NCBI GenBank assembly: GCA_963836235.1
Contig: CAWIIP010000005.1
Location: forward strand, 69,353-133,352
Reading direction: 5' to 3'
Length of the DNA: 64,000 bases
Origin: an uncultured Pseudomonadota bacterium
Lineage (GTDB): Bacteria; Oederibacteriota; Muellerivitia; Muellerivitales; Muellerivitaceae
Position numbers and translations under genes: made by a program. The notes below the pieces were generated by a model. The model searched no databases. It worked only from the letters and a program-made list of their open reading frames with translations, and was not told the origin of the DNA. Of this stretch, positions 6,313-42,805 are shown piece after piece (within the stretch, counting starts at the first letter, position 1; each line of letters starts with the position of its first letter).

Positions 6313-7026
6313 ATGGGTTCGGTTAAAAAATGGGATGGTCAGCGCGAAACCCTGGATGATCTTTCCGAAGCCACCCATTACAACGAATGGATTTACAAGA
6401 TACTGAAGCCTTATGTTGGAACCCGCATTTTGGAGATCGGTTGTGGAACCGGAAACCTGACGGGATACCTCCAAAAGCACGGCCCAGTTTTGGCAGTGGA
6501 TTTTCACGCCGGGTATCTTCAGACGGCTCAAAAAAAGCTCAAGTTTCTTTCCGGCATAACTTATAAAAAAATTGATCTCGAAAAAAGTCTGACTTCCTTG
6601 CGCGCCTTTCATCCCGACACTCTCATTTGCGTTAATGTTTTAGAACATCTCTCAAACGATCAGCAAGTTTTAAATCGATGTTTCCGCCTTCTGCCACCCG
6701 GCGGAAGACTTTTATTATTCGTCCCCGCTTTCCAATTTCTTTTCGGCACCATGGACCTAAGTTACGGCCATTTCCGCCGCTATTCCCTTTCGGAGCTGAG
6801 GAATAAGATGGAAAGGACGGGATTCCAAGTCGACTATTGCCGTTACTTAAACTTATTGGGTGTTTTGGGTTGGTGGCTGAACGGAAAAATTCTCAAAAAG
6901 AAAATCATTCCCAAGTCACAGATGCTTCTTTACAACAAAGTAGTCCGGTACTCCTCAAAAATAGAAAAATTTCTTCCAAAACCATTAGGGCTTTCCCTTT
7001 TTTGCGTCGGCCAAAGGCCTAAGTGA
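6313..7026 (+). CDS. Class I SAM-dependent methyltransferase
   Basis: Motif I ILEIGCGTGNLTGYL and a post-I acidic residue. 237 aa. Confidence 0.75.
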   Translation: MGSVKKWDGQRETLDDLSEATHYNEWIYKILKPYVGTRILEIGCGTGNLTGYLQKHGPVLAVDFHAGYLQTAQKKLKFLSGITYKKIDLEKSLTSLRAFHPDTLICVNVLEHLSNDQQVLNRCFRLLPPGGRLLLFVPAFQFLFGTMDLSYGHFRRYSLSELRNKMERTGFQVDYCRYLNLLGVLGWWLNGKILKKKIIPKSQMLLYNKVVRYSSKIEKFLPKPLGLSLFCVGQRPK

Positions 7027-7123
7027 TTCCCTGGAAGAAAATTCGTTTTTATTTGCTCGTTGAATATTAATCTTATACAGTGAGGGCTAGCATTTCCTGA
7101 CATATTACGCGCCTGGAAAAAAA

Positions 7124-7828
7124 ATGGTTTTTCAAAAACCTCGATCCTTATCCATCATTGTTCCCGTTTATAACGAAGAAAAAACCCTTCTCCAACTTTT
7201 AAAAAAAGTCCAGGCGGTTAAACTTTTGGGGCTCAAAAAGCAAATTATTATTGTCAACGACGGCTCTACCGATAAAACTCCCCAAATTCTTAAAACCCTT
7301 AAGATTCCCGGCGGCAAGATCCTCCAACACGATAAAAACCGGGGTAAAGGTGCCGCCATCCGGACGGCCATTCCCCATACCACAGGCGACATCGTTATTA
7401 TTCAGGACGCGGACCTTGAATATGACCCTTCCGACTACAAAACCGTCTTAGCCCCAATTTTGGACGGGTCAGCGGACGTCGTTTACGGTTCCCGCTTCAA
7501 GGGCATCCATCGGGCGTTTCTTTTCTGGCATTACGTTGGAAATAAATTTTTGACCTTTTTGACAAACCTCTTATATGACACTGTTTTGACCGACATGGAA
7601 ACCTGTTACAAAGCCTTCCGAGGTGAAATTATCCGTTCCTTGCGATTACGATCGAATCGTTTTGATTTCGAGCCTGAAGTCACCGCCAAAGTCCTGAAGC
7701 GCGGATGCAAACTTTTCGAGGTCCCGATTTCGTTTCGCGGACGTGGGTTTGAGGAAGGTAAGAAAATCACCTGGCGAGACGGTGTTGTGGCACTATATTG
7801 CCTTATTCGTTACCGCTTCTTGGATTGA
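7124..7828 (+). CDS. GT2 polyprenol-phosphate sugar synthase (Dpm1/GtrB-like, soluble)
   Basis: GT-A motifs: SIIVPVYNEEKTL, DGSTD, and the DxD-type DADLEYDP. 234 aa with no TM helices, as for Dpm1-type dolichol/polyprenol-P-mannose synthases. Confidence 0.8.
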   Translation: MVFQKPRSLSIIVPVYNEEKTLLQLLKKVQAVKLLGLKKQIIIVNDGSTDKTPQILKTLKIPGGKILQHDKNRGKGAAIRTAIPHTTGDIVIIQDADLEYDPSDYKTVLAPILDGSADVVYGSRFKGIHRAFLFWHYVGNKFLTFLTNLLYDTVLTDMETCYKAFRGEIIRSLRLRSNRFDFEPEVTAKVLKRGCKLFEVPISFRGRGFEEGKKITWRDGVVALYCLIRYRFLD

Positions 7829-8028
7829 TCGTCTCCCCCCCATTAGAAGATTTCGAGCCATTTCAAAAGCCCTGAATACAAGGGTTTTGCCTTCTTTTAA
7901 AGGTTCCTAATTTCCCTGTTAAAAAAACCTTTACAAGCTCATTTTGCGGGCAAAAACTCCTGTAAACATGTTATCTTTACTTCTCTTTCGACCGACCGCC
8001 GTGATTCAACTATGGAGCGAGGAAAATC

Positions 8029-9033
8029 ATGCCAAAAATTTCAAGGAAAAAAAGCTCACTCAAAAGCAAATCTGCGGCCAAACGAACCCCGCGCAAAGGA
8101 TCAAGAAAAATATTATTCCTTTTCGTGATTTTGGGATTATTTATATCGGCAGATTTGATTTCGGTACTCTACAACAAATCCAACGAGGCCAAGATAATCA
8201 CCGTTCAGAAAATTCAGGAATTCACCGGTGACAGCCAAGCTTCCGGAGCTTTCAAAGGCTGGGATATTTTAGCCCTTCCAAACGCCATAGCCCTGACGGA
8301 CCAAGGCCAAAGCCGGATTCTCCTATTTGACCGACAGGGAAAATTTCTGAGTAAAATCGACCAAGACCAATCCGGCCCTCCTCCCTTCAAAGAACCTTCC
8401 TGTCTGACCGCCGATTCAAATGGAAATCTTTATGTAATGGATACCTGGAACACCATGATCCGCGGTTTCAACACCAAAGGAGATTCCATCCTCAAGCTTG
8501 ACCTAAGCGCCAAAAGTTTTTATGGTCCCCGGGGTTTGGCTTGGGATAACAACGCTTTCGTAATCGCCGATACCGGCAGTCATCGCGTCGCAAAGGTTTC
8601 ACCGGATGGAACGGTCTCCGGGGCTTGGGGGAGCCGAGGGTCAGGCAAAGTCATGTTTAACAACCCTTATGAAGTCGCCACCGATGGCCACAGTAATTAT
8701 TATGTGGTTGACCGGGATAATAACCGGATCGAAGTTCTTGATTCACAAGGCCGGTTTGTCCGCGAAATTCGCATTGGCGCTCCCCCAACGGCCGAAGCCA
8801 TTGATCCAGAGCGCAAACTGCTTTATGTCTCTTCCATGGACGGACAGTTTGTTAAGGTTTTCGACTTGGATGGCAAATTCATTGGCAGCGTCTCTGAATT
8901 AGGTCAAAAGGGACAGCCCTTGACGGGAATCAACGCCCTCAGTGTTTTCCCGGATGGAGATATTTTGGCCCTTCGTGACGGAAGCCGGGTCCAAATTTAC
9001 CACACTGTTCCCACACCCGAAAAGACACAATAG
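8029..9033 (+). CDS. Membrane-anchored NHL-repeat beta-propeller protein (paralog 1)
   Basis: Lys/Arg-rich N-terminal tail, one TM helix (ILFLFVILGLFISADLISVL), then repeated NHL-like blades (e.g. GNLYVMDTWN, FVIADTGSHRV, YYVVDRDNNRIEV). Paralogous to 28660-29682 and 37619-38641. Confidence 0.7.
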   Translation: MPKISRKKSSLKSKSAAKRTPRKGSRKILFLFVILGLFISADLISVLYNKSNEAKIITVQKIQEFTGDSQASGAFKGWDILALPNAIALTDQGQSRILLFDRQGKFLSKIDQDQSGPPPFKEPSCLTADSNGNLYVMDTWNTMIRGFNTKGDSILKLDLSAKSFYGPRGLAWDNNAFVIADTGSHRVAKVSPDGTVSGAWGSRGSGKVMFNNPYEVATDGHSNYYVVDRDNNRIEVLDSQGRFVREIRIGAPPTAEAIDPERKLLYVSSMDGQFVKVFDLDGKFIGSVSELGQKGQPLTGINALSVFPDGDILALRDGSRVQIYHTVPTPEKTQ

Positions 9034-9196
9034 AGATTCTTAGCATGCTTGTCTTACCCTATGGAAAACCCTTGATCAGAATGTATCTGCCTAAACAATC
9101 TGTACTTTGCATTTTACAAAGTTGTCTATTGAATTCGAAAAGTTTGTTCTTCGATTTTTTTAATTCTTCATTAAATTTATCCCAAGAAAGTACACT

Positions 9197-10321
9197 GTGA
9201 GCTTTTTCAAGCAAGATTGCAAACACTTCACTGGTGAGAAACCTTGTGCCCCCCACAAGGCCGAAGGCGTAGTCTGCCAGGACTGCCCTCGGTATGACTC
9301 CGTCAAGGAGCGGGTTTTAATCATCAAATTGGATGCTGCGGGGGACGTTTTGCGCTCCACTTCTATCCTCCCCGCCTTCAAAACCGGCAACCCAGGGCTT
9401 TCAGTCTGGTGGGTGACGGAAAACTCCTCAAAACCTCTTTTGGAAAAAAATCCCTATATCGATGTCCTTTTGGGAATCGACTCTGTTCTTCCAAGCCTTC
9501 TTTCCACCGTTTCTTTCGGCCGCGCCTTCAATTTCGATATGGGTCGAAAAGCCGCGGCCATTTTGGCCATGGCCAACAGCCAAGACAAAAAAGGTTTTGG
9601 CCTTTCCCCGGAAGGTTCCGTTATTCCCCTGGAAAAGTCGGCCGAAACCTGGTTTGAGATGGGCATTTTCGACACCATTAAGCGCGCCAACCAAAGAACT
9701 TACCAGGACCACTTATTCCAACTAGGTGGATTTAAATACCGGGGTGAAAAACCTCAATTGATCCTGACATCCAAGGAAAAAGAATGGGCCCAGGCTTTTG
9801 CCAAGAAAAACAAGCTTTCCAAGTTCAAAAAGATTGTGGGCCTCAACATTGGATCAGGCGGACGTTGGCCCATGAAACGCTGGCGTTTGGACGGGTTTGA
9901 GTGGCTGGCTAAGGCGCTAAAGAAAAAACAGCCACAAGCCGGCATCCTGCTCTATGGCGGTCCGGAAGAAAAAAACTTGATGCCGGACCTCGCCAAAAAA
10001 CTAAAAGGCCTTTGCCTGCCGACGGGCACGGAAAACACACTCCGCCAATTTGCTTCCCTAGTGGGTTTGGTTGACGTTCTGGTGACGGGCGACACCCTGG
10101 CCTTGCACGTGGCGGTAGCCTTGCAAAAGCGGCTCGTGGCTTATTTTGGTCCCACTTCGGATACTGAAATCGACCTTTATGAAAGTGGGGAAAAAGTGCT
10201 TCCCGTCTCTCCTTGCCAATGTTATTACCAGAGTCAATGCACCGTGAAGATTTCCTGTATGGACAACTTGAAGGAAAAAGACATGCTGGCGGCGGTTTTA
10301 AGGCAACTAAAACAAAGCTAA
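9197..10321 (+). CDS. GT9-family glycosyltransferase (heptosyltransferase-like) with N-terminal 4-Cys motif
   Basis: GT9 signatures: LIIKLDAAGDVLRSTSILPA near the N-terminal domain and VTGDTLALHVAVAL in the C-terminal domain. The first 35 aa carry C-x7-C-x10-C-x2-C. GTG start with no strong RBS. No alternative in-frame start occurs before the GT9 core. Confidence 0.7.
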   Translation: MSFFKQDCKHFTGEKPCAPHKAEGVVCQDCPRYDSVKERVLIIKLDAAGDVLRSTSILPAFKTGNPGLSVWWVTENSSKPLLEKNPYIDVLLGIDSVLPSLLSTVSFGRAFNFDMGRKAAAILAMANSQDKKGFGLSPEGSVIPLEKSAETWFEMGIFDTIKRANQRTYQDHLFQLGGFKYRGEKPQLILTSKEKEWAQAFAKKNKLSKFKKIVGLNIGSGGRWPMKRWRLDGFEWLAKALKKKQPQAGILLYGGPEEKNLMPDLAKKLKGLCLPTGTENTLRQFASLVGLVDVLVTGDTLALHVAVALQKRLVAYFGPTSDTEIDLYESGEKVLPVSPCQCYYQSQCTVKISCMDNLKEKDMLAAVLRQLKQS

Positions 10322-10356
10322 ATACGAATTTCAGATCATTGAGAGCGACTCCGCCA

Positions 10357-11085
10357 ATGAAGCTACTAAAAACCGTCATTATGGTTCCCACCTACAACGA
10401 AAGGGCCAATATTGCCGAATTGGTCAAACTGCTTCATAAAAGCGTTCCACAGGCTGAAATTTTGGTCGTTGACGACTCGTCTCCCGACGAAACTTTCACG
10501 GAAGTTAAAAAATTAATGAAGAGAGACAAAAAGCTGCATTTGCTATTAAGGGATCGATCCATCAAAGGCAGAGGCTGGGCTGGTCGGGATGGATTTATGA
10601 AAGGTCTTTTAATGGGGGCTGACGCTATAGTGGAAATGGACGCCGACTTGTCCCATCAGCCGAAATTTATCCCTGCTATGTTGAAGCCCCTTCTTATCAA
10701 GGAAGCGGATGTCGTCATCGGGAGCCGTTATATGGAGGGCGGTAAAGATATGGATCGCCCCTTTCACCGCCAATGGACCAGCAATTTTGCCCGCTATTAT
10801 TTGAAATTTTTCTTGGGTTTAAGCCCGAAGGATCCTACTTCCGGATTCCGTGTTTTTTCAAAAGAAGCTCTTAGAAAAATCAAGGTTGAAACCCTAACAG
10901 CCCGCGATCCCTTCACGGTTTCTGAAATCTTGTACCGTTGTTCACGGGCGAAATTGAGGATAAAAGAAGTCCCGATTGAATTTATCGACCGGACCCGGGG
11001 CGAATCCAAATTACACCTTACTACTCTTTTAAAATACCTGGGCCGAGCCCTCTTACTCAGGCTTGGCCCTAATCCTCTCAACTGA
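10357..11085 (+). CDS. GT2 polyprenol-phosphate mannose/glucose synthase (Dpm1-like)
   Basis: MKLLKTVIMVPTYNERANIAELV, VVDDSSPDET and the DAD motif (EMDADLSHQP) are typical of Dpm1/Ppm1-type synthases. Start chosen at ATG 10357. The ORF-track start at 10213 would overlap the GT9 gene by 109 nt. Confidence 0.75.
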   Translation: MKLLKTVIMVPTYNERANIAELVKLLHKSVPQAEILVVDDSSPDETFTEVKKLMKRDKKLHLLLRDRSIKGRGWAGRDGFMKGLLMGADAIVEMDADLSHQPKFIPAMLKPLLIKEADVVIGSRYMEGGKDMDRPFHRQWTSNFARYYLKFFLGLSPKDPTSGFRVFSKEALRKIKVETLTARDPFTVSEILYRCSRAKLRIKEVPIEFIDRTRGESKLHLTTLLKYLGRALLLRLGPNPLN

Positions 11086-11134
11086 TAAAACCAATCTTTA
11101 ATTCCGTCAGGTAAAAAAATAAAGCAAAATTGTA

Positions 11135-11174
11135 GAAATAAAATTTTTCGTTTAAGTGCTGAAAATTTTATTTC
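11135..11174. terminator. AT-rich perfect inverted repeat between convergent genes (possible bidirectional terminator)
   Basis: GAAATAAAATTTT (11135-11147) and AAAATTTTATTTC (11162-11174) are perfect reverse complements around a 14-nt loop. T-runs lie on both sides. The element sits between the GT2 stop (11085) and the convergent MTase stop (11168). Confidence 0.3.
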
Positions 11175-11887
11175 TTGGCGGCGACATAATACTGAGCGCC
11201 CAAAGGAAGCCAGCTGAGGCCCCGATCAAACGAGCGGAAAAGACCGCCTCGAAAAGGAGTGAATAAAATATATTTCTTTTCAACGACCTCCACTGGCGCC
11301 TGCCCCATAAGTTTTTCCACCTGTCTCGTCCTCAAAAGAATGGCATCGTCATCCATATCACAGTTAGAAACCGCGATTTGAGTAAGGGGATTCCAGGGAT
11401 TGTGCTCAAAAATGGCGATCAATCCCCCTTTTTTTGTCACCCGGGCCATCTCACTAACAAATTGGCTCAGTCCATCCGGCATCACGTGATGCATAACGCA
11501 AATGGCAAAGGTGATATCCATGGATTGGGAAGGATAAGGAAGGATTTTCCCAGCGTAATGGCGGTAAGACCCTTGGGAATTCAATGCGGCAGCTTTCTGA
11601 ACAACTCCCCGGCTTAAATCCACGCCATAAAGTTTACGGAAATACCTGATTAAATAATAATCGGTGATCCCCACCCCACAGCCGACATCCAAAATTTTCA
11701 GTTTCGAGGGATCGCCTACATGCCGGCGCGTTAAATCCAGAAGATAGTCCGCTTTGACTTGGGTAAAAAAATCCAAATCCTGGCCGATAAATGATATTGA
11801 CTCTTGGATTTCCTGACGATAAGTGTCTTTATAACGCTCAAATTCGACTCGAGATGGAATGTCTAATTTAAAACGTTTGGAATTCAT
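11168..11887 (-). CDS. Class I SAM-dependent methyltransferase
   Basis: Motif I LKILDVGCGVGITDYYL, acidic D in VDLS, and motif III-like ITFAICVMHHV. 239 aa. Confidence 0.75.
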   Translation of the reverse strand: MNSKRFKLDIPSRVEFERYKDTYRQEIQESISFIGQDLDFFTQVKADYLLDLTRRHVGDPSKLKILDVGCGVGITDYYLIRYFRKLYGVDLSRGVVQKAAALNSQGSYRHYAGKILPYPSQSMDITFAICVMHHVMPDGLSQFVSEMARVTKKGGLIAIFEHNPWNPLTQIAVSNCDMDDDAILLRTRQVEKLMGQAPVEVVEKKYILFTPFRGGLFRSFDRGLSWLPLGAQYYVAAKK

Positions 11888-12104
11888 GCATTTTCCAATT
11901 TTAAGCGTTATTGAAATACTCGATGGGTATTTTAAACTGGGATAAGTTTATCATAACTACTTTAGGATCCAGGCAAAATTTCAAAACCGCTTTCTCAAAA
12001 ACTCACCCGGTATTTTGAAAGTTTTCTCTATCCCGCGCCCATGGAAAAGAAGGCTCTATCAATTAACCGTGACTTCCTCCTTTTTTACTTTACTAAAAGT
12101 CATT

Positions 12105-12386
12105 TCAAAAACTTTTAAAGAACAATAGGTACATAGAACCACCATAGGTCTTCAATACCCGGTCATAGCGCACCAAGACACTCGGGAAATTGGCAATCAG
12201 CTGATAATTTGTTCCGCAACCACAGTTTCCGATACCGTTTGAGCATCTATCCTGGTCGATAACCTTCCGGTTGTTGCGTCGGACCAGAATAATGGGTTGA
12301 ATGCGCCTCCTCTTTAGAAGCTTTCGGACTTTATTGAAGTCGCATCCCCAGTCAGCGATCAGCCTTTCAGGTTTTCTCTCTACCAC
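12105..12386 (-). mobile_element. IS5-family (DDE_Tnp_1) transposase C-terminal remnant
   Basis: The 93-aa ORF ends ...LIADWGCDF...NCGCGTNYQLIANFPSVLVRYDRVLKTYGGSMYLLFF. This matches the conserved C-terminal block of IS5/IS4-type transposases (LIADKGYD ... ERTNxxLKxFKRLxxRYEK). The expected ~200-aa N-terminal part is missing. Only about 380 bp of non-coding DNA follows before the next gene. Confidence 0.55.
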
Positions 12387-12767
12387 TTGGACTATCCAAG
12401 GTCACTTCCAGAAGCTTCACTTCCGACAGGGACGCTGAGTCCCGATATGTTCGTAATGGAGCATCCGCGTCATCGACCAGAACCATACATTTTGTTCCTT
12501 TCCCCCTCTTGGTTTTCCTGATTTTAAAACACATTTTTTAGCCCGGAAAAAGGATCCGTCAAGGAAGCACTCAAATCCGTCCCGAATTGGTAGCCGCCTC
12601 TTTGAATGGATAGATTAAATTCTTGATGTGATTTTTCTACCAAGACATGGTAAGAAAAGACGAAACGTATCATCCTCTACCCAAGGTTTTGACAAACAAA
12701 AGTCCTAAAATTGATACCTCAACCCAAAACATTAAACAGCAAATATCCTGAGCGCCCCAACCAATAA

Positions 12768-14813
12768 TCATTTCGAAGTTTGGCTTTCAAAAGGAATTAG
12801 CTTTTGATGGATAAGTTCATGGGCAAATATGGTCCCCAGCAAAGTATGCCCATTATGGTTGAAATGATAAATACCGCCGTGCTCTGCGGTGGGATAGGAG
12901 CTCGCTTTCAAAACGGACATTTGATCCGTCAGATCCATGAACGAAAGACCACTTCTCGCGCAAACGTCTTTCCAGAAAAGACGGTAAGGTTCGTTAGGAT
13001 ATTCCGAATCACCAATATTTCCAATTGGAAGAAACCAAAGTCCAAACATCATTGGTTTCCCATCCTTCGTTTTCATCTTTTCAATCTTTTTTCCTAATAA
13101 AACCGATGGTTTGCCGACCAATTGAATCAAATCCTCCCGAACATCCCCATCTCCCAACATCTGGTCCATTGGGACAAAGGTTTCAAGATTGCCGGCCTTA
13201 CCGAAATGATTTTCGATACACCGATGGTAAAAATCCTTTAAGACAGGGCTTTCTTCCGCTCGCTGGTCCAACGGTTTCAAAAAAAATTCCGTGTCCACGT
13301 TTTCACCCGGAATCCCATCCTTCGTTAAAGGGCTAAAAAAATACGGTTTGTACTGATCCTCCGTGGAAGGCGTCATCACCAAAAGACAAAGATCGATGTC
13401 GTAGGTCTGGAGAACAGGTGGAACTTCATAATAGGGCCACAAACCTAGAAAAAAGGTTCCGTCACGCCCTAAGCTCAATACCTGGAAGTGAACCGGAACA
13501 TCCTCCAGGGCTCCCCAAGTGTTCAACATCTGCTCAAGCCGTTTGGGAAATGTTTCCATTCGGTTGTAACCCCAATCCCATCTTTTTTTATATTCATCAC
13601 TATTGGTATGAACAGTATGGGAATCCCCGACGATAAGGATCCGAAAAGTATTAGGGGGTTTTGCGGCGGGAAAATCAAAATCCGTAATGCCTCCCGCCGT
13701 TCTTCGATCCCATACAAAATCGGTGTCCTTGTACTTGTCAAAACGGTAATCCCGAAGACTGAAAATCACATTGCGGTTGGACATTGAAACAAAAAACCGC
13801 TTAGGATCCGCCGGATCGGCGACAAAACCTGGCAAGTAAGGTATGTAGTTCATCAAAACCGAGAGGTCGGGTTCACCTTTGTCTTGAATAAAGTCTCCCC
13901 AGACCGACATCATTTTAAGCGGACCGGCTTCGTTGGCGGGGGCGATTTGTACCCAATCGTTACCCTGACCCCAAGGCAATCCGTACAAAACGTCACCGGA
14001 AGAGGCTATAGCAGATATTGGGGTCACGCTTTTACCGACCATCGAAATTGCGACTTGGGCGGTTAGGGTTCCAGCGCCGGGTTCCAATTCATATACCGCA
14101 TTCGATACTCCGTCACCGACACAAACATGATTTCCGTAAACACATATTCCCCAAGGATGCGTCATTTCCAACCGGCCTTGGACAACGTTTGAAAACAACT
14201 GTTTTTCCATATCTAGTTTCGAAACTATTCCTTCACCGCTCCGGGTAAAATAAATAGAATTTTCCTCGGGAAAAAAAATCATGTCGCCCACGTCTGCGAT
14301 GGTATCTAACACACTGCCATCAGAAGTCTTAGGATGAAGCGTTGACACCATTTGCGTGTTCAAATTGACAAGGCGGAGACGGCCCTGATCGTAAACTACC
14401 AACTGGTTCGTTGGCAAGAAGACTAAAAGACTAGGTTTGTTAAAAGTAGTTTTTGGAAAAGAACCATCTTTGTTGCCCCTTATGGATGAACCCGCAAGCG
14501 TTTGGACTTCATTATTCTTGTCCAATCCGACAACCCGAATTCGGTGATTTTCAGCATCAGCTACAAAAAGTCGGGTTCCCTTTGCGTCAACCGCGAGGCC
14601 TTGTGGCGTGTCGAATAAAGCCGAAATAAACGAGCCGTCACGGAACCCCCTTGCCCCCTGTCCGGCAACAAGATCGTTATACTCCACCATGGGCGTTATT
14701 CCCCACAGTTTCGGGGAAAGTATTAGAAATAAAAAAATTATTTTTTTCAAAGTCCGCCTTATTGTGCAGGATTTCCGAAATGACCTTTCATCGACGCGAA
14801 ATACGTTTACCAA
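12768..14813 (-). CDS. Secreted/anchored NHL beta-propeller fused to SGNH/GDSL-type hydrolase domain
   Basis: N-terminal hydrophobic signal/anchor, then NHL blades (LAVDAKGTRLFVADAENHRIRVV). The C-terminal ~300 aa carry the SGNH block-I motif RILIVGDSHTVHTN. The true start may be an internal TTG/ATG near 14750. Confidence 0.65.
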   Translation of the reverse strand: MVNVFRVDERSFRKSCTIRRTLKKIIFLFLILSPKLWGITPMVEYNDLVAGQGARGFRDGSFISALFDTPQGLAVDAKGTRLFVADAENHRIRVVGLDKNNEVQTLAGSSIRGNKDGSFPKTTFNKPSLLVFLPTNQLVVYDQGRLRLVNLNTQMVSTLHPKTSDGSVLDTIADVGDMIFFPEENSIYFTRSGEGIVSKLDMEKQLFSNVVQGRLEMTHPWGICVYGNHVCVGDGVSNAVYELEPGAGTLTAQVAISMVGKSVTPISAIASSGDVLYGLPWGQGNDWVQIAPANEAGPLKMMSVWGDFIQDKGEPDLSVLMNYIPYLPGFVADPADPKRFFVSMSNRNVIFSLRDYRFDKYKDTDFVWDRRTAGGITDFDFPAAKPPNTFRILIVGDSHTVHTNSDEYKKRWDWGYNRMETFPKRLEQMLNTWGALEDVPVHFQVLSLGRDGTFFLGLWPYYEVPPVLQTYDIDLCLLVMTPSTEDQYKPYFFSPLTKDGIPGENVDTEFFLKPLDQRAEESPVLKDFYHRCIENHFGKAGNLETFVPMDQMLGDGDVREDLIQLVGKPSVLLGKKIEKMKTKDGKPMMFGLWFLPIGNIGDSEYPNEPYRLFWKDVCARSGLSFMDLTDQMSVLKASSYPTAEHGGIYHFNHNGHTLLGTIFAHELIHQKLIPFESQTSK

Positions 14814-15265
14814 TTACAACACACCCTTCCTGCCCTACCACTCTATGCTACCTGATCGTGTTTATGACCATTCGACATATCAGGAAGTCGATGCTCACTA
14901 GTTTGGTATCGTCATATTTTTAAGAAGCCAGGAAATCGAAGATCAATTGACGGCTAAATTCTTTCGTCTTTCATTGCGCATTCCCCTGAATTCAATCAGC
15001 CAGAAGGCGGTTTCCAATCAACTCTTTCAAACAACACTTTTTCCAACTCATAATGGTTGTCAACCCGTCATAAGTAGGATTTACCCTCATTAAGCTTCAT
15101 TTTAAAAACCCATCAAAAACCTCTGAAGATTCCTTTCGCCAGTTTATCCGTTGTTTTTTCTCCGGTAGTCTCCAAAGTGAAAGATGTCGCAACCATCATG
15201 CGAAAGATGTTCTATTTACTTTAAATAAATTTCATCTGAAAAACCCGAAATCGAAGCCTCTTAAC

Positions 15266-18286: not shown

Positions 18287-18718
18287 TCACGGTTTCTCAA
18301 ACAGGCTAGATTTTATTACCTTAACCAGCCTTAAAGAAGGATGAAATGTGATTTCAGCTGGTAAAACAAGTAAAAACCCTCAACTTTTTTAAAAAAATAT
18401 TTTCTTTTTCATCGGTTTTAAAAAATATACTCTTAAGCATAAAAGCTCTCTTCGTTTTATTCCAACTTACTCCCATGAAGCTTTAAAACCGAATAAGCAT
18501 CTATTTAAACAAGATGCCGGGCCAAAACCCCGGGAAGCCTTCCCTGACCGAAGAAATCATATTGAATATAGTTTGACTTCCGGCTTACAAAAAAATTTTA
18601 AAATCATTAAGAAGACCGCCCGTTAAAAAAACTAGTAACACGGTTAAAATGATCAACTTAATCATGATCATTTTTTGCGACTTTTTAAAAAATTTTAAAA
18701 ATTTTTTTCCAAATGTTA

Positions 18719-36283: not shown

Positions 36284-37093
36284 TTATCCTTTACGCGCGA
36301 CGATGAAGTAACAGGCTCCCGGCGCGCCATCGGTGTTGAGGTCTTTGCGCAACCAATTCGTCGCGAACCACTTGACCGGCCCACGGGGGCCGACGACCCA
36401 CCGTCCAAATAGAAGTTTGATGATCTTGGAAGGAAAGGCCAGGATCATCCAGCGTTCATAGGTATGAAAAGTCTTCAGGGGAATAATGTAGTCGGCCTTT
36501 TCCATTTTGAGCCCGGCTTTTTTCAAGCGTTTTTTCCAGATTTCGGCGTTGTCTACATGGAAGTGCTTGAAGGTTTGATTCAGTTTGTCCACATACAACT
36601 TGCCCAAGCCAGAAAGACCCACTTTCGAAAGCAGGTTACGGAAGAAGGAATCGTTGCTGAAGCATTCGCTAGGGACGGTAATTATCAGGCGGCCCTTAGG
36701 CTTCAGCACCCGGTGAATTTCCTTTAAGGCGCCGTCGATATCCGGAATATGTTCCAACACACAATTACTGACCACGGTCTTAAAGGAGTTTTTGGGGAAA
36801 GGCAGTTCAGTGGCGCTGGCGCAAAGAGCCTTTTTGTAGCTTTTACTCTCAACCGCTCTTTTAACCTCGTCCGGGTCTAGGTCAATGCCAGCTTCCAAGT
36901 TGCCACCAAAGGCGACCCTAGCCAGGAAGCCATCCCCGCAACCCACGTCCAAAACAGGATGTTCCAACTTTTCCTTCGAGAATCGGTGGCATTCCATCGA
37001 ACGCCAAAAAGCCATGGCGATGGGTGTTTTTTCCAGGTATTGGCGAAAAAATTCCTCACGGCTTCTTGGGTCAATTTTCAAATGCTTCTCCAT
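36284..37093 (-). CDS. Class I SAM-dependent methyltransferase
   Basis: Motif I VLDVGCGDGFLA, VVSNCVLEHIPD, and RVLKPKGRLIITVP. It stops 3 nt upstream of the GtrA-MTase gene. Confidence 0.75.
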   Translation of the reverse strand: MEKHLKIDPRSREEFFRQYLEKTPIAMAFWRSMECHRFSKEKLEHPVLDVGCGDGFLARVAFGGNLEAGIDLDPDEVKRAVESKSYKKALCASATELPFPKNSFKTVVSNCVLEHIPDIDGALKEIHRVLKPKGRLIITVPSECFSNDSFFRNLLSKVGLSGLGKLYVDKLNQTFKHFHVDNAEIWKKRLKKAGLKMEKADYIIPLKTFHTYERWMILAFPSKIIKLLFGRWVVGPRGPVKWFATNWLRKDLNTDGAPGACYFIVARKG

Positions 37094-37618: not shown

Positions 37619-38641
37619 ATGTCGTCGTTGAAAAGCACAAACACCAGTCAAGAAAACTTGGGAAATTCCAACCATCAACCGGCGCCAATGCCGCTTCAGG
37701 GAACGCCCCGGGCATCAGGCGGGGGCAAAACCTTCGTCCGGATTTTGATCGCCCTCGTGTTGATTGCGGGCGTGGCGGGAAGCTTGTATTTTTTCCTGGG
37801 GAAAACCCCTAAAGATTTCAAAGTCCAGTCCCTCGTTACCTTTTACGGAAATAACAACAAATGCGGGGCTTTTAATGCCTGGGGCATCGGGCCCGTTGGG
37901 AAGGACAAGGTGATGGTGGTGGACCAAGCGAACAACCGCATCTTGGTTTTCGATCGAAAAGGTAACTTCTTAAAAAGCTGGGGAAAACTCGGATCGGGCC
38001 CTATGGGCTTTCATAGCCCCACTGGAATGGTTTCGGACGACAAAATCGGCTACGTGATCGACTCCTGGAACAGCGCCATCAAAGGTTATGACGAAAATGG
38101 AAAACAAGTGTTTAAGCTTGATTTGGGAGACAAAAAGCTTTACGGCCCCCGGGGAATCGGCTTTGACGGAAAGAATTTCCTCCTGGCCGACACGGGAAAC
38201 CATCGGATCCTTTTGATCACACCCGATGGCCATACCGCCGTCTTTTGGGGAACAATGGGTGCAGAAGAAGGTCAATTCAATGAACCCGCTGATGTCGTTT
38301 CAGACGGCAAAGGAAATTATTTCGTGGCGGACACGCTAAACAACCGCGTCCAATGGTTAGATCAAGATGGAAAGGTGGTTAAAGTTTTTAAATTAGAAAA
38401 GAATGTAGCGGTTGTAACCCTGGATCAGGACGGAAGGCTTTATGTGTCAACCGCTACCAAGGATGGAGCCAGTTGCGTAATGGTTTACAGTCTCAAAAAG
38501 GGTTACTTGGGCGAACTTAAGGACGAAAACGGCTCTTTGGTTCCGGTGGACCGAGGCATGGCGGTTAGTTCAGATGATGTTTTAATGATTGCAGACAGTG
38601 ACCACGTTAATTTGTACCAAGTGCCTGCCACTGACCCCTGA
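37619..38641 (+). CDS. Membrane-anchored NHL-repeat beta-propeller protein (paralog 3)
   Basis: N-terminal tail, one TM helix (FVRILIALVLIAGVAGSLYFFL), then NHL blades. About 75% identical to 28660-29682. Confidence 0.7.
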   Translation: MSSLKSTNTSQENLGNSNHQPAPMPLQGTPRASGGGKTFVRILIALVLIAGVAGSLYFFLGKTPKDFKVQSLVTFYGNNNKCGAFNAWGIGPVGKDKVMVVDQANNRILVFDRKGNFLKSWGKLGSGPMGFHSPTGMVSDDKIGYVIDSWNSAIKGYDENGKQVFKLDLGDKKLYGPRGIGFDGKNFLLADTGNHRILLITPDGHTAVFWGTMGAEEGQFNEPADVVSDGKGNYFVADTLNNRVQWLDQDGKVVKVFKLEKNVAVVTLDQDGRLYVSTATKDGASCVMVYSLKKGYLGELKDENGSLVPVDRGMAVSSDDVLMIADSDHVNLYQVPATDP

Positions 38642-38744
38642 TGGTTGTAAATTCGATCTTATTAGAAAACGTTCACCGAATCGGGCGAGCTTTAAAAAGC
38701 TTCCTGCCGACAGAATTTAAAAAAAAGTTAAACCTTAATTCGCA

Positions 38745-40639
38745 TTATCTACGCTTCTTAACCTTCGGCTTCTTCCCTAGAACGCGCCATATCCCATAGG
38801 ACAAGAATCCCGCGCAGGTGGCGAAGGCATCTCCGGTAGCGGCCTCGCCGGTATTCTCATCCACCGATTCACAGGCGATCCCATTGTCCATTTTGGCGTT
38901 CTTGAGAAACTTCAAGGCCCTGTCTTTTTGCTCCGCCAGCAGGCTGTTCACCGAAGCCAAAACCCAGGGGTGGGGGGCGTGGGCGCAGCCCACTTCCTCA
39001 AAGGGCTTGCCCGGGAAGGAATAGGGATAGTCCGCCGAGTAAATCCAATCCCGGCACCTCTTCCAAAGGGGGTAAGAAACCTTGCAAAATCCGTAATGGG
39101 GCAGAAGCAAAAGACTTCCGGGCGGTTCGTCGTAAAGCATGTGGCCGTTTTTCGGTTCCAGGTCCGCCGACCAGGCGAACATGCGGCCCTTGGGGCCCTT
39201 CACCACGCAATAGCGGATGATGGCGGCCTTCACCAGGCCCGCTTGGCGTTGGAGGCGGCTGATTTTGACCGACAAAAGCTTGTTCTTCTCCATGCGGTAA
39301 ATCTGAGCTAAGTCCATCAAGGCCCGCCAGACCAGGACGTTGTCGTAGGTCACATAGCGTTGGGGCCAAGGGTCATCGGAGGGCAGTAGCCAGGTTTGGT
39401 ACAGGTCTTTCTTAGGGTGCTTCTTCAGCTGCCAATTCCCTCTCGAACCTCTCCAGGCTTTCCCGAACCCCCGGCTGGTTTAAAAAGCCCAGGTCCCGGG
39501 TGGCCTCCAGGTAATTCCTCAGGGCGATCAACTGGCGCGCAAAACTCATCCAGTTCAAACCCCGGTTCCAATACCGCCCCGTTCAAATAACGGCTATGCA
39601 CTCCGAAATTCCTCGCCTGCCGGGTAAAGACGTAACCCAGGACTTTCCGGGCCCATTCCGGGTCCAAGGCCAGAATCGAGGGGAAGGACCAAAGCAGGGT
39701 ATCCCTGTCCCAATAGGCCCCACTGACATAATAACGGTTGCTTCGGGAAGTCAGGCAAACCGTTTCTTCCGTGTCGATGGTCACCCCGGTCGCGTAAAAG
39801 CGGTTGAAGAAGGCGTTCACGTTCATCAGGCTATCCAGCTGGGGGTCCTTGGTTTTGGTGGTCCGCTGTTTCTCTCCCAGCCACTTCACCGTTTGCTGCC
39901 GGAGGGCCTTCCCGCCCGTCCTTTGCAGTTCCCTAGCGGAGGAGAAGGCGCCGATCTCATCCAACCCGAGCCCGAAATAAAAGTGGGCCTGCCAGGCCTC
40001 TCCCTTTTTCACTTCCTTGGATTGAAGCCAATGTAAAAGCAGGCTCTCCTCCCCTTCCAATAAGGTTTCCCGTCCCGTGGGATTTAAGGCTTGAAGGCCT
40101 TTGCGGAAGAAGAAGCGGCTGGTCTTATCTTGGGGATAGGGTGCCAAGGCAACCAGGGGGGCGGGCGAACGGAATTCGAGGGCCGGCATGTCCTCCCAAG
40201 TCTTGGCCACTAAAAAGCGGCTTCCTTGGAGGGGTTTGGTGACATTGATGCTATGCAAAAGGGAAGACCAAGCTATATCCGCAGAAAGGCCGCAATAGAA
40301 GGAGTTCTGGGAAAGGTTGGAGATCCTCAGGGAAAGAACAAAACCCCTTTGGCCGAAGGGGCAAAAGTAAAGACCTTCCACTTCCAGCCAATCTTCCTTC
40401 AGACGGAACTTCGGCAGCCAGTCCCCTTCCCTTTCCCAGGTGAAGCGGCCATCCAGGACCAAATCCTCGTCATTGATGGTGATCCGGGGGGTCAAAAAGG
40501 GGGTCGCCCCTCCTGAAAAAGCCAATAGGCCGTTCGCGCCCATGTGAATGACATTCACCTGTTCCACCGCCCCATCCCTTTCACGGATGGTTGGCAGGGC
40601 CACATACTCGTTGCCAGTCGGGATGTATTTTTCTTTCAT
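38745..40639 (-). pseudogene. Frameshift-disrupted glycoside-hydrolase-like gene: N-terminal beta-sandwich plus (alpha/alpha)6-barrel; GH15/GH125/GDE-type, family uncertain
   Basis: Two adjacent ORFs (39425-40639 and 38745-39353) lie in different frames. The upstream ORF ends in a low-complexity tail (DRPEELPGGHPGPGLFKPAGGSGKPG). The downstream frame stays open upstream to 39479 (…DLYQTWLLPSDDPWPQRYVTYDNVLVWRAL). Both pieces look like parts of one (alpha/alpha)6 glycosidase (YVSGAYWDRDTLLW; NVLVWRAL). Confidence 0.4.
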
Positions 40640-40711
40640 TCAATCATTTCCTTTAAGCCGTCTTTGCCGGGGATTTCCGGAACATCATAACGATGTTTTG
40701 AAGCCGTATCC

Positions 40712-42805
40712 TCACTGATTCGATGGCCGGTAAGCCCCCTGTTGCACCAGGTAATCCAGGCCCCTTTTGGCCTCCGCGTGATCCGGTTGGAGTTTCAACA
40801 CCTTTTCGAATAATTTGCCCGCCAGGGCATTATTGCCCGTCTGTAAAGCCACGACGGCCCAGTTGAAATAAGCGACGATATATTGGGGATCGAGTTGGGC
40901 GGCCTTTTCATACCAAGCCAAGGCATCGTTCACCCGGCCTACGTGGTAACAAGCGTTCCCCAGGTTATAGGCATATTGAGCATTTTGGGGGTCCCATTTC
41001 TGGGCCCACTGGAAACAATTCAAAGACCTCTCATAATCCTGTTCAAGTGTCAACAAATCAGCGGCCTTGGAATGGGACGTGAGTTGGGCCTTGGCGTCGT
41101 CCCCCTTGTCCTCATAAAAAGTCCCCAGGCTGTTGCGGAAAACGCCGTAATCCTTATAAATAAAATTGCGAGTCTGATCATCCATGACAAACCCGGCTTC
41201 CACCATGTGCCTCAACCTCAGGGCGTTCCAAACCGCGTCGGAACGGGCCTCGTCCAGAACCAGCTTTTCCCCCGGCAAAAAACCCTTACCCGTCACCCCA
41301 TAAAGAACCATTTTAATTTCCGGCAGGGGCCCGTCTTTATAACGGTTATAGCTGAAATAAAGTTCCCGGTCCGGGTTCTTATCGATCATCCATTTCGCCA
41401 AGGGGGATACCGCTTCATTACCCATCGGCTGGGTGGTTCGGGGAACTTTCAAACCCGGATGGAATCGGGCCAGATTCGCCCGTACCCATTCCATAGGCAA
41501 GCCGTCGATACCCACCATCGCGACGTCGGGACGCTTTTGTTCCACCCATTGGAAATACCAGGCGGGAAAAATGATGGTGTCGCCCCGGCAAAGGTACAAG
41601 GCGTTTCGGGGAAGGGCCTTGAATCCGTTCAAAACCGAATCGTAGGAATAGGTGTAATCAGTCTGCCTTTCGGTGGAAAAACGATGGACGGCCAACCCCA
41701 CCAGCCAAAGAAGAACAAAGCCAAAAATTATTTTTTCAATCCTCGGTCTCCATTCCGCCTTCAAAATTGAAAGACCGGTTTCCAAACCCCAGGCCGAAAA
41801 CAGAAGAATGAACAAATGGGCGGTCATCCCATACTCTTGGATGAGAAAAAACTTTTCCTTTGAGAGATTCAGGTAAATTCCTAAAATCAAAACGATGGAA
41901 ACCCACGGCGCGATAAATACCCAAGCCCAGGATTTCAGGGGAGACCACCGTCGAACCGCGTAGATTCCCCCGAAAGCCGCCAAAAGCATTCCCCCAAATT
42001 CCCAGAAAGCCGCTTGAAGATAGGTCCACCACTGTTGAAACCAGACCAAGGGACCCCCACCCACATCGGGCGCCAGATATTGGCTTCTTAAAAAGTCATA
42101 AACAAAGTTATGCCACGTGACGGGATTGCCCCAATTCAAAGCCGGGCCTTGAAGCGACCTCAGGGGAAGTAAAAGATAAAGGGAAAGGCCCAATAAGCCG
42201 GCGGAAGCCAATTGGATCAAGGGCTTTTGTTCAAACCCTTTTTCCTTCCATCTAAAATAAAAGAAAAGGCTGAAGCCCGGAAGGTAAGCCATCATGGTCA
42301 TCCAGTGATTGGCGAAGGAAAGCCCCAAAAGAAAGCCAAAAAATAATAGGCGCCCTTCGAAGAAGGCCCAAAGGATCGCCAGAACGAAAAGAGCCGTCAA
42401 TTGATAGATACCGGTCTTGGCGCTTAAGGCGGCCGGAAAGGTGGTGGCCCCGGCCAGCCAAAAGAGGGCGAAAAGGGCGGCCCATCGGTTGGAGACATGG
42501 AGTTTTTGCCTCAAAAAACCGTAAAGCAGCAGGCAAACCCCCGCCGCCAGACAGGCGGACAAGAGGTTCACCCGGAAGGGGTAATGGGACAGGGGAAGGC
42601 GGGAGAAAAGGAACCCCATTAGGGTGAAAAGGGGGTAACCGGGCGGGTGGGGTATCCCCAAACTCACACTGGCGGTGACTGTTTCCGGGCTGTCATCCGC
42701 GTAGAAAGTGGGATTCAGCCCCACCAGAGCGAAGGAAAAAACCAGAAAAACCAGGAGAAAGGGCGTCAGCCGCTCCCATCGGTTGGTTGGGGGAAGGTTG
42801 TCCAT
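40712..42805 (-). CDS. DUF2723 (TMEM260-like) GT-C-fold membrane protein with C-terminal TPR repeats
   Basis: N-terminal motif YADDSPETVTASVSLGIPHPPGYPLFTLMGFLF is the DUF2723 signature, followed by about 11 TM helices. The C-terminal ~180 aa have 3-4 TPR repeats (AQYAYNLGNACYHVGRVNDALAWYEKAAQLDPQY...). Confidence 0.7.
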   Translation of the reverse strand: MDNLPPTNRWERLTPFLLVFLVFSFALVGLNPTFYADDSPETVTASVSLGIPHPPGYPLFTLMGFLFSRLPLSHYPFRVNLLSACLAAGVCLLLYGFLRQKLHVSNRWAALFALFWLAGATTFPAALSAKTGIYQLTALFVLAILWAFFEGRLLFFGFLLGLSFANHWMTMMAYLPGFSLFFYFRWKEKGFEQKPLIQLASAGLLGLSLYLLLPLRSLQGPALNWGNPVTWHNFVYDFLRSQYLAPDVGGGPLVWFQQWWTYLQAAFWEFGGMLLAAFGGIYAVRRWSPLKSWAWVFIAPWVSIVLILGIYLNLSKEKFFLIQEYGMTAHLFILLFSAWGLETGLSILKAEWRPRIEKIIFGFVLLWLVGLAVHRFSTERQTDYTYSYDSVLNGFKALPRNALYLCRGDTIIFPAWYFQWVEQKRPDVAMVGIDGLPMEWVRANLARFHPGLKVPRTTQPMGNEAVSPLAKWMIDKNPDRELYFSYNRYKDGPLPEIKMVLYGVTGKGFLPGEKLVLDEARSDAVWNALRLRHMVEAGFVMDDQTRNFIYKDYGVFRNSLGTFYEDKGDDAKAQLTSHSKAADLLTLEQDYERSLNCFQWAQKWDPQNAQYAYNLGNACYHVGRVNDALAWYEKAAQLDPQYIVAYFNWAVVALQTGNNALAGKLFEKVLKLQPDHAEAKRGLDYLVQQGAYRPSNQ

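Follow-up and report, generated by a model that had tools for sequence, protein, structure and literature searches.

A recurrent locus in the candidate phylum FCPU426 that may encode a multi-module, lipid-linked glycosylation machinery

The locus and its genes

An uncultured soil bacterium of the candidate phylum FCPU426 carries a 36-kb block of genes that is the subject of this paper. The block occupies positions 6313-42805 of the window, by which we mean the whole 64,000-nucleotide stretch of DNA that was analysed (part of contig CAWIIP010000005.1, numbered from the first letter of the stretch), and its map of open reading frames (ORFs) and Pfam scans show it to be dense in genes of glycosylation type. 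Seven of these genes encode membrane glycosyltransferases of the GT-C type; four are PMT-like with a PA14 domain, two are YfhO-like and one is TMEM260-like with tetratricopeptide (TPR) repeats. Seven GT-C genes within 36 kb, their tandem paralogy and their recurrence across many genomes are far beyond chance. Reading the locus from its genes, from profile and sequence searches and from predicted structures, we consider it fairly probable that its products make up a multi-module machinery for the glycosylation, outside the cytoplasm, of a target in the cell envelope, with lipid-phosphate-linked monosaccharides as donors. The genes are listed below (TM, transmembrane; aa, amino acids; SAM, S-adenosylmethionine).

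6313-7026, + strand: MT1, soluble class I SAM methyltransferase, 237 aa (Pfam Methyltransf_11/12/25)
7124-7828, + strand: GT2a, small soluble GT2 of the polyprenol-phosphate-sugar synthase type, 234 aa, no TM helices (Pfam Glycos_transf_2, E 4e-35)
8029-9033, + strand: NHL-a, type II membrane-anchored six-bladed NHL beta-propeller; basic N-terminal tail and one TM helix (Pfam NHL, DUF5128)
9197-10321, + strand: GT9, heptosyltransferase family, Cys-rich N-terminus (Pfam Glyco_transf_9)
10357-11085, + strand: GT2b, second small soluble GT2, 27% identical to GT2a (Pfam Glycos_transf_2)
11168-11887, - strand: MT2, class I SAM methyltransferase (Pfam)
12768-14813, - strand: exported NHL propeller fused to an SGNH-like C-terminal domain, 681 aa (NHL, E 7e-10)
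15266-18286, - strand: GTC-L, PMT-like GT-C with C-terminal PA14, 1006 aa (PMT_2 and PA14 both above Pfam cut-offs)
18719-21070, - strand: YfhO-1, YfhO-like GT-C, 783 aa, about 13 TM helices (Pfam YfhO, 36 bits; cut-off 28.5)
21115-23607, - strand: GTC3, third gene of the PMT-like/PA14 triad, 35% identical to its paralogue 23611 (PA14, 22.1 bits, just below cut-off)
23611-26157, - strand: GTC2, second gene of the triad, the protein chosen for modelling
26180-28621, - strand: GTC1, first gene of the triad, 27-29% identical to its paralogues (PA14, 25.2 bits, above cut-off)
28660-29682, - strand: NHL-b, anchored NHL propeller, first gene of its operon (Pfam NHL, E 2e-17)
30180-32414, - strand: MFS/spermidine-synthase-like fusion (Pfam Spermine_synth and MFS_1; NCBIfam NF037959)
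32818-35148, - strand: YfhO-2, YfhO-like GT-C, 776 aa, 48% identical to 18719 (Pfam YfhO, 36.1 bits)
35219-36280, - strand: 4TM-MT, four-helix membrane domain fused to a class I SAM methyltransferase (Pfam methyltransferase families)
36284-37093, - strand: MT3, class I SAM methyltransferase, 3 bp from 4TM-MT (Pfam)
37619-38641, + strand: NHL-c, anchored NHL propeller, 66% identical to NHL-b (Pfam NHL; paralogy)
38745-40639, - strand: GH125-like gene (alpha-mannosidase family) with two frameshifts near 39353-39500 (Pfam Glyco_hydro_125 on the C-terminal fragment; three-frame read-through)
40712-42805, - strand: TMEM260-like GT-C with C-terminal TPR repeats (Pfam TMEM260-like, 66 bits; cut-off 24)

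To the left of the block lie genes for a periplasmic GH3 protein and a sugar ABC transporter, and to the right ptsI and a mannose-type phosphotransferase system (PTS). The start of GT2b has been revised from the listed TTG at 10213, which overlaps GT9, to the ATG at 10357; its orthologues are 238-239 aa long. Every class of gene named in an earlier note on this DNA is found by the ORF map and Pfam scans where that note had placed it, including the GT9, the MFS/spermidine-synthase-like fusion (NF037959, 62.5 bits against a cut-off of 40) and three membrane-anchored NHL propellers (8029, 28660 and 37619). Its count of four more SAM methyltransferases must be corrected, as the free-standing ones number three (6313, 11168 and 36284) in addition to the fused 4TM-MT, and its gene list lacked the conserved GH125-like gene at 38745-40639. 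The paralogue expansion that it described is plain in an all-against-all BLAST comparison, with identities of 27-35% in the GT-C triad, 48% in the YfhO-like pair and 33-66% in the NHL trio.

The window holds three sub-modules, each with an NHL paralogue of its own: MT1-GT2a-NHL-a-GT9-GT2b with MT2 adjoining; NHL-b-GTC1-3-YfhO-1-GTC-L; and a third that comprises YfhO-2, 4TM-MT, MT3, NHL-c, the GH125-like gene and the TMEM260-TPR gene. The gaps between NHL-b, GTC1, GTC2, GTC3 and YfhO-1 are 38, 22, 3 and 44 bp, and because they span only 3-44 bp we take these five genes to form a single operon, with YfhO-1 sitting 44 bp past the triad. A promoter and terminator scan of 11-30.5 kb gave counts equal to those in shuffled sequence, and no tRNA genes were found in the window.

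The membrane glycosyltransferases and their partners

What exactly are the multi-TM proteins that carry a PA14 domain? At the level of Pfam, PMT_2 (PF13231) reaches 26.7 bits in 15266, against a cut-off of 26.1, and 20.2 bits in 23611, and has no match in the other two paralogues; PA14 exceeds its cut-off in 15266 and 26180, lies just below it in 21115 and has no match in 23611. The sequence profile of the family matches PA14 structures in the PDB (E 4e-8), and GTC-L, with its 1006 aa, is homologous to the triad family (hhalign probability 95% over ~570 columns), whose three members in the window are ~830 aa long. An AlphaFold2 model of GTC2 (23611-26157), built on 19 homologues (pLDDT 79.9, pTM 0.81), consists of a helical membrane core, an alpha/beta domain and a C-terminal beta-sandwich, i.e. 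a GT-C fold plus a PA14 domain. When this model is compared with the PDB by Foldseek, the matches at E < 1e-3 are only GT-C enzymes (AglB, STT3, PglB, EmbC, ArnT, AftD, Pmt4, ALG9 and ALG12 among them) or PA14-carrying proteins (lectins and PA14-containing glycosidases). In other words, both the multi-pass GT-C membrane core and the PA14 beta-sandwich lectin domain (PF07691) are found, and the predicted structure identifies the PA14-bearing multi-TM proteins as GT-C glycosyltransferases. Unrelated transporters, which the earlier note had allowed that they might be, are not what the structure comparison gives. The original description of four PMT/ArnT-like proteins with PA14 domains thus stands on the fold model, the profile and the paralogy, although individual Pfam scores are marginal in three of them and PA14 is unmatched in 23611.

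Three narrower assignments of the PA14 family were considered and rejected. It is not GT39 proper, as PMT_2 is the only match and there are no PF02366 PMT, MIR or PMT_4TMC domains. Nor is it an oligosaccharyltransferase; STT3, AglB and PglB top the Foldseek list, but there is neither an STT3 Pfam match nor a WWDYG/WWDxG motif, and the similarity is at the level of the fold only. For membership in the Emb family, the Arabinose_trans Pfam match is absent.

All 19 family members, the three proteins of the triad among them, have the same five residues in a loop after a TM helix (R139, D153, R179, E180 and Y185); of these, R139, D153, E180 and Y185, but not R179, are aligned in GTC-L as well. Because these loop residues are kept, no paralogue of the PA14 family looks like a dead enzyme. 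D153, in the motif FWDD, is likened to the catalytic Asp of the PMT enzymes by topology and not by structural superposition.

The PA14-type GT-C family is rare, with 38 clusters in an index of 5.8 billion proteins and 189 representatives at E <= 1e-30 among 1.84 billion proteins. Its carriers among species-representative genomes are FCPU426 metagenome-assembled genomes (MAGs), one Firestonebacteria MAG and some MAGs labelled "bacterium" or "uncultured proteobacterium". In some lineages the family is strongly expanded. The MAG MFD03726.bin.1.149 holds at least eight GT-C/PA14 genes over four loci (L023, L024, L026 and L015 in our numbering), one of them with three tandem NHL genes. Assembly quality is visible in this family, too: a GTC1 orthologue is divided into two ORFs in an ENA/NCBI MAG contig (L003, 7686-9981) and is whole in a Logan read assembly (L004, 7687-9981), so frameshift errors do occur in such assemblies.

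The membrane proteins that face the periplasm (8029, 28660, 37619, 21115, 23611, 26180, 15266 and 18719) have in common a K/R-rich N-terminal head with the consensus M-[AP]-x-R-K-K-[TS]..., followed by a Pro/Ala/Ser-rich spacer of 15-25 residues and then the first TM helix. The motif is kept in orthologues of the NHL and GT-C families alike and could be a shared cytoplasmic targeting or interaction signal.

Both YfhO-like proteins exceed the Pfam cut-off of 28.5 with whole-protein scores of ~36 bits, as the earlier note's two YfhO-like genes would have it, but the match covers profile positions 756-831 of 835, i.e. the last ~75 residues. A sequence search of the PDB with a YfhO-like protein found no relative. 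The single DUF2723-TPR protein of the earlier note is on firmer ground: the product of 40712-42805 reaches 66.3 bits with PF11028 (cut-off 24.2) and has C-terminal TPR repeats, two marks of the TMEM260/DUF2723 family. It is aligned by phmmer to human TMEM260 (PDB 9rql) over residues 16-456 (E 1e-20), with D38 opposite the catalytic D52 of the human enzyme and an identical HPPGYPLFTL motif. Judged by this alignment, it is a true TMEM260 homologue that has kept the catalytic Asp. The human enzyme has been proven to be a protein-specific O-mannosyltransferase; D52 is its catalytic residue, its TPR region is luminal, and the authors of that work mention distant homologues in bacteria (PMC10214176). 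To our knowledge, no homologue of TMEM260 from a bacterium has been characterised.

Beside the TMEM260-TPR gene, the GH125-like gene is split into ORFs of 404 and 202 aa by two frameshifts within ~150 bp. Its orthologues are intact (629 and 622 aa, at L031:5875-7764 and L036:3555-5423) and always adjoin the TMEM260-TPR gene; the copy in the window is either a pseudogene or the product of long-read assembly errors. The GH125 profile matches only the C-terminal half of the protein, and a PDB sequence search with the 404-aa fragment returned nothing useful. The conservation of a gene of this kind next to a TMEM260 gene hints at mannose.

The close NHL family is confined to the same few taxa as the PA14-type GT-C family. 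In the exported protein at 12768-14813, the NHL-SGNH fusion described earlier, the NHL part resembles SOQ1/NHLRC2. The SGNH half is weak; the C-terminal part matches Lipase_GDSL_2 at E 0.088 only, and among homologues the GDS motif is present in 4/6 and the C-terminal His in 5/5, with the Asp at position -3 of that His (block V, DxxH) absent. Homologues of this gene come after GT-C arrays in L005, L010 and L017, and a relative, P0382, has an NHL-PA14 fusion. In the 880-bp gap at 11888-12767 there is a 93-aa ORF (12105-12386, - strand) that by eye is like the C-terminal part of an IS5-type transposase and has no Pfam match; the NHL-SGNH-like gene is absent at the same position in L003, an 87%-identical relative. 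Given the adjoining IS5-like ORF and the lack of the gene in L003, the NHL-SGNH-like gene was possibly inserted at its place.

Where would the donors for the GT-C enzymes come from? The best PDB matches of GT2a are ArnC, the Dol-P-Man synthase (DPMS) of Pyrococcus and GtrB, and in NCBIfam it comes closest to AglJ, ArnC and Dol-P-hexose transferase, in each case below the equivalog cut-off; GT2b matches AglJ, PgfS and PpgS in NCBIfam. GT2a and GT2b are likely of the polyprenol-phosphate-sugar synthase class. The claim of two soluble Dpm1-like synthases holds in that both proteins are TM-free and find their best matches among such synthases, but they remain far below the equivalog cut-offs. A small soluble synthase with a separate 4-TM partner has a precedent in mycobacterial PpgS/Rv3632.

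The AlphaFold2 model of 4TM-MT (pLDDT 81.5) places four TM helices (residues 14-128) ahead of a class I methyltransferase fold. A fusion of a 4-TM domain with a methyltransferase is what the earlier note had seen; its view of the membrane part as a GtrA-like flippase module fared less well, as the match to GtrA_DPMS_TM is sub-threshold (E = 1) and only one of 22 relatives has a weak match (E 0.007). 4TM-MT belongs to a large family, 52-95% conserved, that has members beyond FCPU426 as well. Its relatives there (L027 and L028) have methyltransferases, GT9, GT2 and GDP-heptose-type genes nearby, and no GT-C/PA14 or NHL genes. In L028 (GCA_016699445.1, a 2.7-Mb MAG labelled Deltaproteobacteria; 3956-11689), the 4TM-MT homologue has in its vicinity a GT2b homologue (39% identity) and genes for a GHMP kinase, a HAD phosphatase, a nucleotidyltransferase and a SIS isomerase. 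The latter four look like a GDP-heptose pathway and may indicate the sugar handled by GT2b, 4TM-MT and GT9. GT9 itself scores below the cut-offs of NCBIfam heptosyltransferases I-III, has 3tov and WaaF as PDB matches and is the most conserved gene of the set, with 75-87% identity across distant FCPU426 loci. Its N-terminus (window 9197-9290) is Cys-rich, CKHFTGEKPCAPHKAEGVVCQDC, and is possibly a metal-binding finger.

Recurrence, history and surroundings of the locus

Gene neighbourhoods were surveyed in FCPU426 genomes and metagenome contigs, from the GT-C side in 21 distinct loci and from the NHL side in loci with close and with distant NHL relatives. Starting from GT-C genes, an NHL gene lies within the fetched stretch in 15 of the 21 loci; the typical order is NHL and then two to six GT-C genes, often with a YfhO-like gene, the long GT-C gene, MT2, GT2b, MT3/4TM-MT, GT9 or the MFS fusion. 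Starting from NHL genes in metagenome contigs, cluster genes are directly beside NHL in all 17 close NHL loci with flanking sequence; the 14 loci whose NHL relatives are all distant have none there. The arrangements that recur at NHL loci are 4TM-MT then NHL, NHL then GT-C, NHL then GT9, and MT1-GT2a-NHL. Gene order of this kind argues that the link between NHL and GT-C genes is real and specific and that the genes form one system. The co-operonic placement of NHL with GT-C genes, proposed at first sight, is upheld by this count and by the 38-bp spacing between NHL-b and GTC1.

The most compact version of the locus is a minimal core of ~9 kb, GT9-MT2-GT2b-MT3-4TM-MT-NHL-GTC-L, in L033 and L048. 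A GT-C gene is encoded together with a likely donor synthase both in the window and in this core, as in the three-component systems discussed below. Parts of the order recur more widely. GH3-MT1-GT2a-NHL-GT9 is kept in L042 and L045, and NHL-GT9 adjacency is found also in L019, L021, L040-L042, L044 and L047; NHL is followed by GT-C in L003, L005, L009, L011, L013, L018, L029, L030, L034, L036 and L038, and in L013 the MFS/spermidine-synthase fusion adjoins this pair, too. MT2 comes after the long GT-C gene in L003, L009 and L011 and between GT9 and GT2b in L033 and L048. 4TM-MT is directly upstream of the NHL gene in L030-L035, L037, L038 and L048, the MT3-4TM-MT pair is kept in L018, L021, L030-L034, L047 and L048, and a gene of the YfhO-2 type adjoins 4TM-MT in L029, L030 and L047. 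Compact versions lie beside ptsI, as in the window, in L021, L031 and L047. In L001, the sole distant case, only the GT-C triad is kept.

Is the block an island? The earlier note had used that word for a single co-located cluster; the genes do recur together, but as a conserved chromosomal locus. Horizontal acquisition as an island was rejected, since the same ptsI and GH3/ABC-transporter flanks occur in relatives (L021, L031, L042, L045 and L047) and G+C content at third codon positions (GC3) shows a modest step only. Because the ptsI and GH3-side neighbours recur in related genomes, we regard the locus as an old chromosomal feature with lineage-specific expansion. The GC3 step lies at ~21.1 kb, with values of 0.46-0.51 in genes 6313-21070 (0.58 in GT9) and 0.56-0.70 in genes 21115-44836, and YfhO-1 is 65% conserved relative to L003, compared with 74-87% for its neighbours. 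These values hint that the left part was replaced by recombination within the phylum.

Genes for LptB, LptA, LptC and a lipid A acyltransferase lie elsewhere in the window, and on their account the organism is taken to be a diderm with a periplasm and lipopolysaccharide (LPS). These genes end a series at 49130-63445 that begins with the mannose-type PTS and continues with a YvcK/CofD-like protein, HPr kinase, an EIIA-Ntr-like protein, hpf and rpoN. At 58212-59896 (- strand), a gene for myo-inositol-1-phosphate synthase adjoins one for a small CDP-alcohol phosphatidyltransferase, which suggests synthesis of an inositol phospholipid or of di-inositol phosphate; in mycobacteria, mannans built by GT-C enzymes are anchored by inositol lipids. 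The FCPU426 literature that we found consists of community surveys only.

A proposed pathway, its acceptor and its significance

Extracytoplasmic glycosylation has as its hallmark a lipid-linked monosaccharide donor together with a GT-C transferase, and the family of the flippase varies (PMC11127046, PMC8035078, PMC5836110). The locus elaborates this known principle and introduces no new one. The reading as a pathway analogous to protein O-mannosylation, only more elaborate, is consistent with the GT-C fold, the GT2 class and the NHL link, and it should be understood as such an elaboration.

From these elements we infer the sugar, the flippase, the order of the steps, the target of methylation and the acceptor as follows. 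GT2a and GT2b would load a hexose, with mannose as our best guess, from a nucleotide sugar onto polyprenol phosphate at the cytoplasmic face. The lipid-linked sugar would then cross the inner membrane, for which the four-helix domain of 4TM-MT and the MFS domain of the fusion are candidate flippases. In the periplasm, the seven GT-C enzymes would transfer sugars singly; extension there would use lipid-linked donors because only such donors are available in that compartment. Of the seven, the TMEM260-like/TPR enzyme is probably the one that begins the O-mannosylation of a folded protein, the four PMT-like/PA14 enzymes probably bind sugar already on the acceptor and extend or branch it, and the YfhO-like enzymes may add further residues. 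SAM methyltransferases would O-methylate the sugars, and the membrane-bound 4TM-MT may act on the lipid-carried sugar. Editing of a sugar on its lipid carrier has precedents in DprE1/E2 and ArnD. The anchored NHL propellers would be obligate partners, either as protein acceptors or as periplasmic scaffolds or acceptor-binding subunits.

Several observations weigh against this proposal. PMT_2 and PA14 scores in Pfam are marginal in three of the four PA14-family paralogues; the YfhO membership rests on a 75-residue match, and hhalign finds no detectable relation between the YfhO-like proteins and the PA14 family (probability 6%). On the donor side, GT2a and GT2b score far below every NCBIfam equivalog cut-off and lack the C-terminal TM helices found in GtrB, ArnC and DPMS, and there is no recognisable GtrA flippase in the locus. 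GT9 and the soluble methyltransferases are cytoplasmic enzymes set within a proposed periplasmic pathway, and the GH125-like protein has no signal peptide, so its action on a periplasmic product is not obvious. Additionally, a large share of the shared gene order was seen between genomes at 60-87% identity, in which such order is kept anyway; real weight attaches only to loci at 30-45% identity.

What, then, is the acceptor? A protein-anchored glycan, on NHL or other envelope proteins, is the answer to which we lean, at somewhat less than an even chance; it is favoured by the TMEM260 homologue, by best structural matches of the PMT and oligosaccharyltransferase type and by the lack of backbone-assembly genes. 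A lipid-linked, LPS or capsular glycan is a slightly less expected but serious candidate, and something else altogether is less likely again. The glycan is favoured by the PA14 lectin domains, by the NHL fusions (SGNH-like here, PA14 in a relative), by GT9 and by amino-sugar nucleotide genes in L003; the PA14 domains and NHL fusions speak for a glycan no less than for a protein as acceptor. A more specific version of the protein reading, which we consider unlikely, would make the NHL propellers the dedicated acceptors of a bacterial domain-specific O-mannosylation that the TMEM260 homologue starts, the PA14-guided PMT-like GT-C enzymes extend and 4TM-MT supplies with methylated, lipid-carried donors. 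If true, domain-specific protein O-mannosylation with chain extension in the periplasm would be seen for the first time outside Actinobacteria, and the metazoan TMEM260/TMTC pathways would have in it a counterpart, or an ancestor, among bacteria.

The glycan evidence also feeds the strongest rival explanation, namely that a three-component system of the GtrABC or ArnC-ArnT type, multiplied by paralogy, decorates LPS O-antigen, core or capsular polysaccharide after polymerisation, on a glycan acceptor built elsewhere, with the NHL proteins as glycan-binding subunits. Such decoration has precedents (PMC11127046, PMC8035078), and it would suit the fusion of PA14 lectin domains to four GT-C enzymes, the carbohydrate-esterase/acyltransferase-type SGNH-like domain joined to NHL in 12768-14813 and the NHL-PA14 fusion of P0382. 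The organism makes LPS, a GT9 of the LPS heptosyltransferase family is in the locus, and directly upstream in L003 (87% identical) are genes for a GFO_IDH_MocA protein, two DegT proteins, an epimerase and a hexapeptide acetyltransferase. However, backbone-assembly genes (Wzx, Wzy, WaaL, phosphoglycosyltransferase, ABC exporter) are missing from the locus, and there is an anchored NHL in every module, unlike in any described three-component system; on balance, we find this explanation rather doubtful. A Wzx/Wzy- or ABC-dependent O-antigen or teichoic-acid locus was considered and rejected on the Pfam content of the products of 6313-42805, which include no phosphoglycosyltransferase, Wzx/Wzy, Wzm/Wzt or ligase. 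With those defining genes absent, and with no paper found that links PA14 with GT-C or NHL with GT39, the locus does not appear to be a characterised one, as had been surmised.

Two further explanations take the set of genes apart. The NHL propellers might be enzymes or sensors (lactonase-, lyase- or SOQ1/NHLRC2-like), with the GT-C arrays in an unrelated envelope role and co-location a matter of shared regulation. Weak Pfam matches to SGL/gluconolactonase-type propellers, the name "sugar lactone lactonase YvrE" given by JGI to some homologues and the SOQ1/NHLRC2-like NHL part of 12768 point that way; yet the SGL matches are all below cut-offs, NHL and GT-C families share a narrow taxonomic range, the 38-bp spacing to the first GT-C gene is translationally tight, and the contrast of 17/17 close with 0/14 distant loci speaks against mere neighbourhood. 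We judge this explanation improbable. Less probable still is a cytoplasmic or lipid-anchored polymethylated polysaccharide of the mannan type, made by the GT2, GT9, methyltransferase and cytoplasmic GH125-like products, with the GT-C genes a separate neighbour. Its model is the methylmannose polysaccharide clusters of mycobacteria. Three to four methyltransferases, soluble glycosyltransferases and a signal-peptide-less protein of an alpha-mannosidase family are indeed conserved together, and 4TM-MT occurs beyond FCPU426 without GT-C/PA14 neighbours (L027 and L028). In the minimal core of L033 and L048, though, NHL and a GT-C/PA14 gene directly adjoin these genes; 4TM-MT is membrane-embedded, and no GT-B or GT4 mannosyltransferase is present.

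How does the proposed envelope-glycosylation machinery compare with known systems? The three-component systems (GtrA/GtrB/Gtr* in Shigella and Salmonella, CsbB-GtcA-YfhO in Bacillus and Listeria, GT136 in Citrobacter) pair a GT2-type polyprenol-phosphate-sugar synthase with an extracytoplasmic GT-C (PMC11127046, PMC8035078, PMC5836110), as the locus probably does, and they include proteins of the YfhO family, to which the two YfhO-like proteins of the locus may belong; the minimal core resembles them in that one GT2, one small membrane module and one GT-C adjoin. In contrast to them, the locus has seven GT-C enzymes and not one. Four of the seven belong to a new PMT-like family that carries a PA14 lectin domain; a 4-TM/methyltransferase fusion stands where a clear GtrA would be, and the GT2 enzymes are TM-free. 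It adds obligatory anchored NHL propellers, several methyltransferases and a GT9, and there are no linked genes for an O-antigen or teichoic-acid backbone. With ArnC/ArnT lipid A modification it shares ArnC as the best PDB match of GT2a, PMT_2 as the Pfam family of ArnT and an organism with lipid A, whereas genes for ArnA, ArnB, ArnD, ArnE and ArnF are absent and the PA14 and NHL parts have no counterpart there.

The mycobacterial cell-wall series (EmbA/B/C, AftA-D, MptA-C and PimE, with decaprenyl-phosphate sugars) resembles the locus in its several GT-C paralogues, three of them in tandem as in embCAB, and in large periplasmic C-terminal carbohydrate-binding domains; EmbC, EmbA/B, AftA, AftB and AftD are among the structural matches of the PA14 family. 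The proposed pathway logic is also alike, as that series uses lipid-monophosphate donors and builds its glycans stepwise in the periplasm. Our account of this logic is drawn in part from PMC11127046. Unlike that series, the locus has no Arabinose_trans Pfam match, no genes of the decaprenyl-phosphate-arabinose (DPA) or phosphoribosyl pyrophosphate (PRPP) pathway, and PA14 instead of the Emb carbohydrate-binding modules. Protein O-mannosylation (actinobacterial Ppm1 with Pmt; eukaryotic PMT/POMT, TMTC1-4 and TMEM260) combines a Dpm1-class GT2 with GT-C enzymes, as the locus probably does. Pmt4, followed by Pmt2 and Pmt1, is the best structural match of the PA14 family, and the product of 40712-42805 shares with TMEM260/TMTC the architecture of a catalytic Asp and C-terminal TPR repeats (PMC10214176). 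The locus differs in the absence of PF02366 PMT, MIR and PMT_4TMC, in having PA14 in the place of MIR, in its tandem paralogue arrays and in belonging to a diderm of an uncultured phylum. What is undescribed, in short, is the PMT-like GT-C/PA14 family, its obligatory anchored NHL partners, the 4TM-methyltransferase fusion, the bacterial TMEM260 homologue and the conserved combination of all of these.

The locus offers a way to find out what TMEM260/DUF2723 proteins do in bacteria; their human relative is the cause of a congenital disorder of glycosylation. The compact 9-kb minimal gene set could be suited in size to expression in E. coli. If our model is true, new lipid-donor-dependent transferases and sugar methyltransferases would become available for glycoengineering, and a whole candidate phylum of soil and peat bacteria would turn out to build its surface with a glycosylation toolkit of which no representative has been studied.

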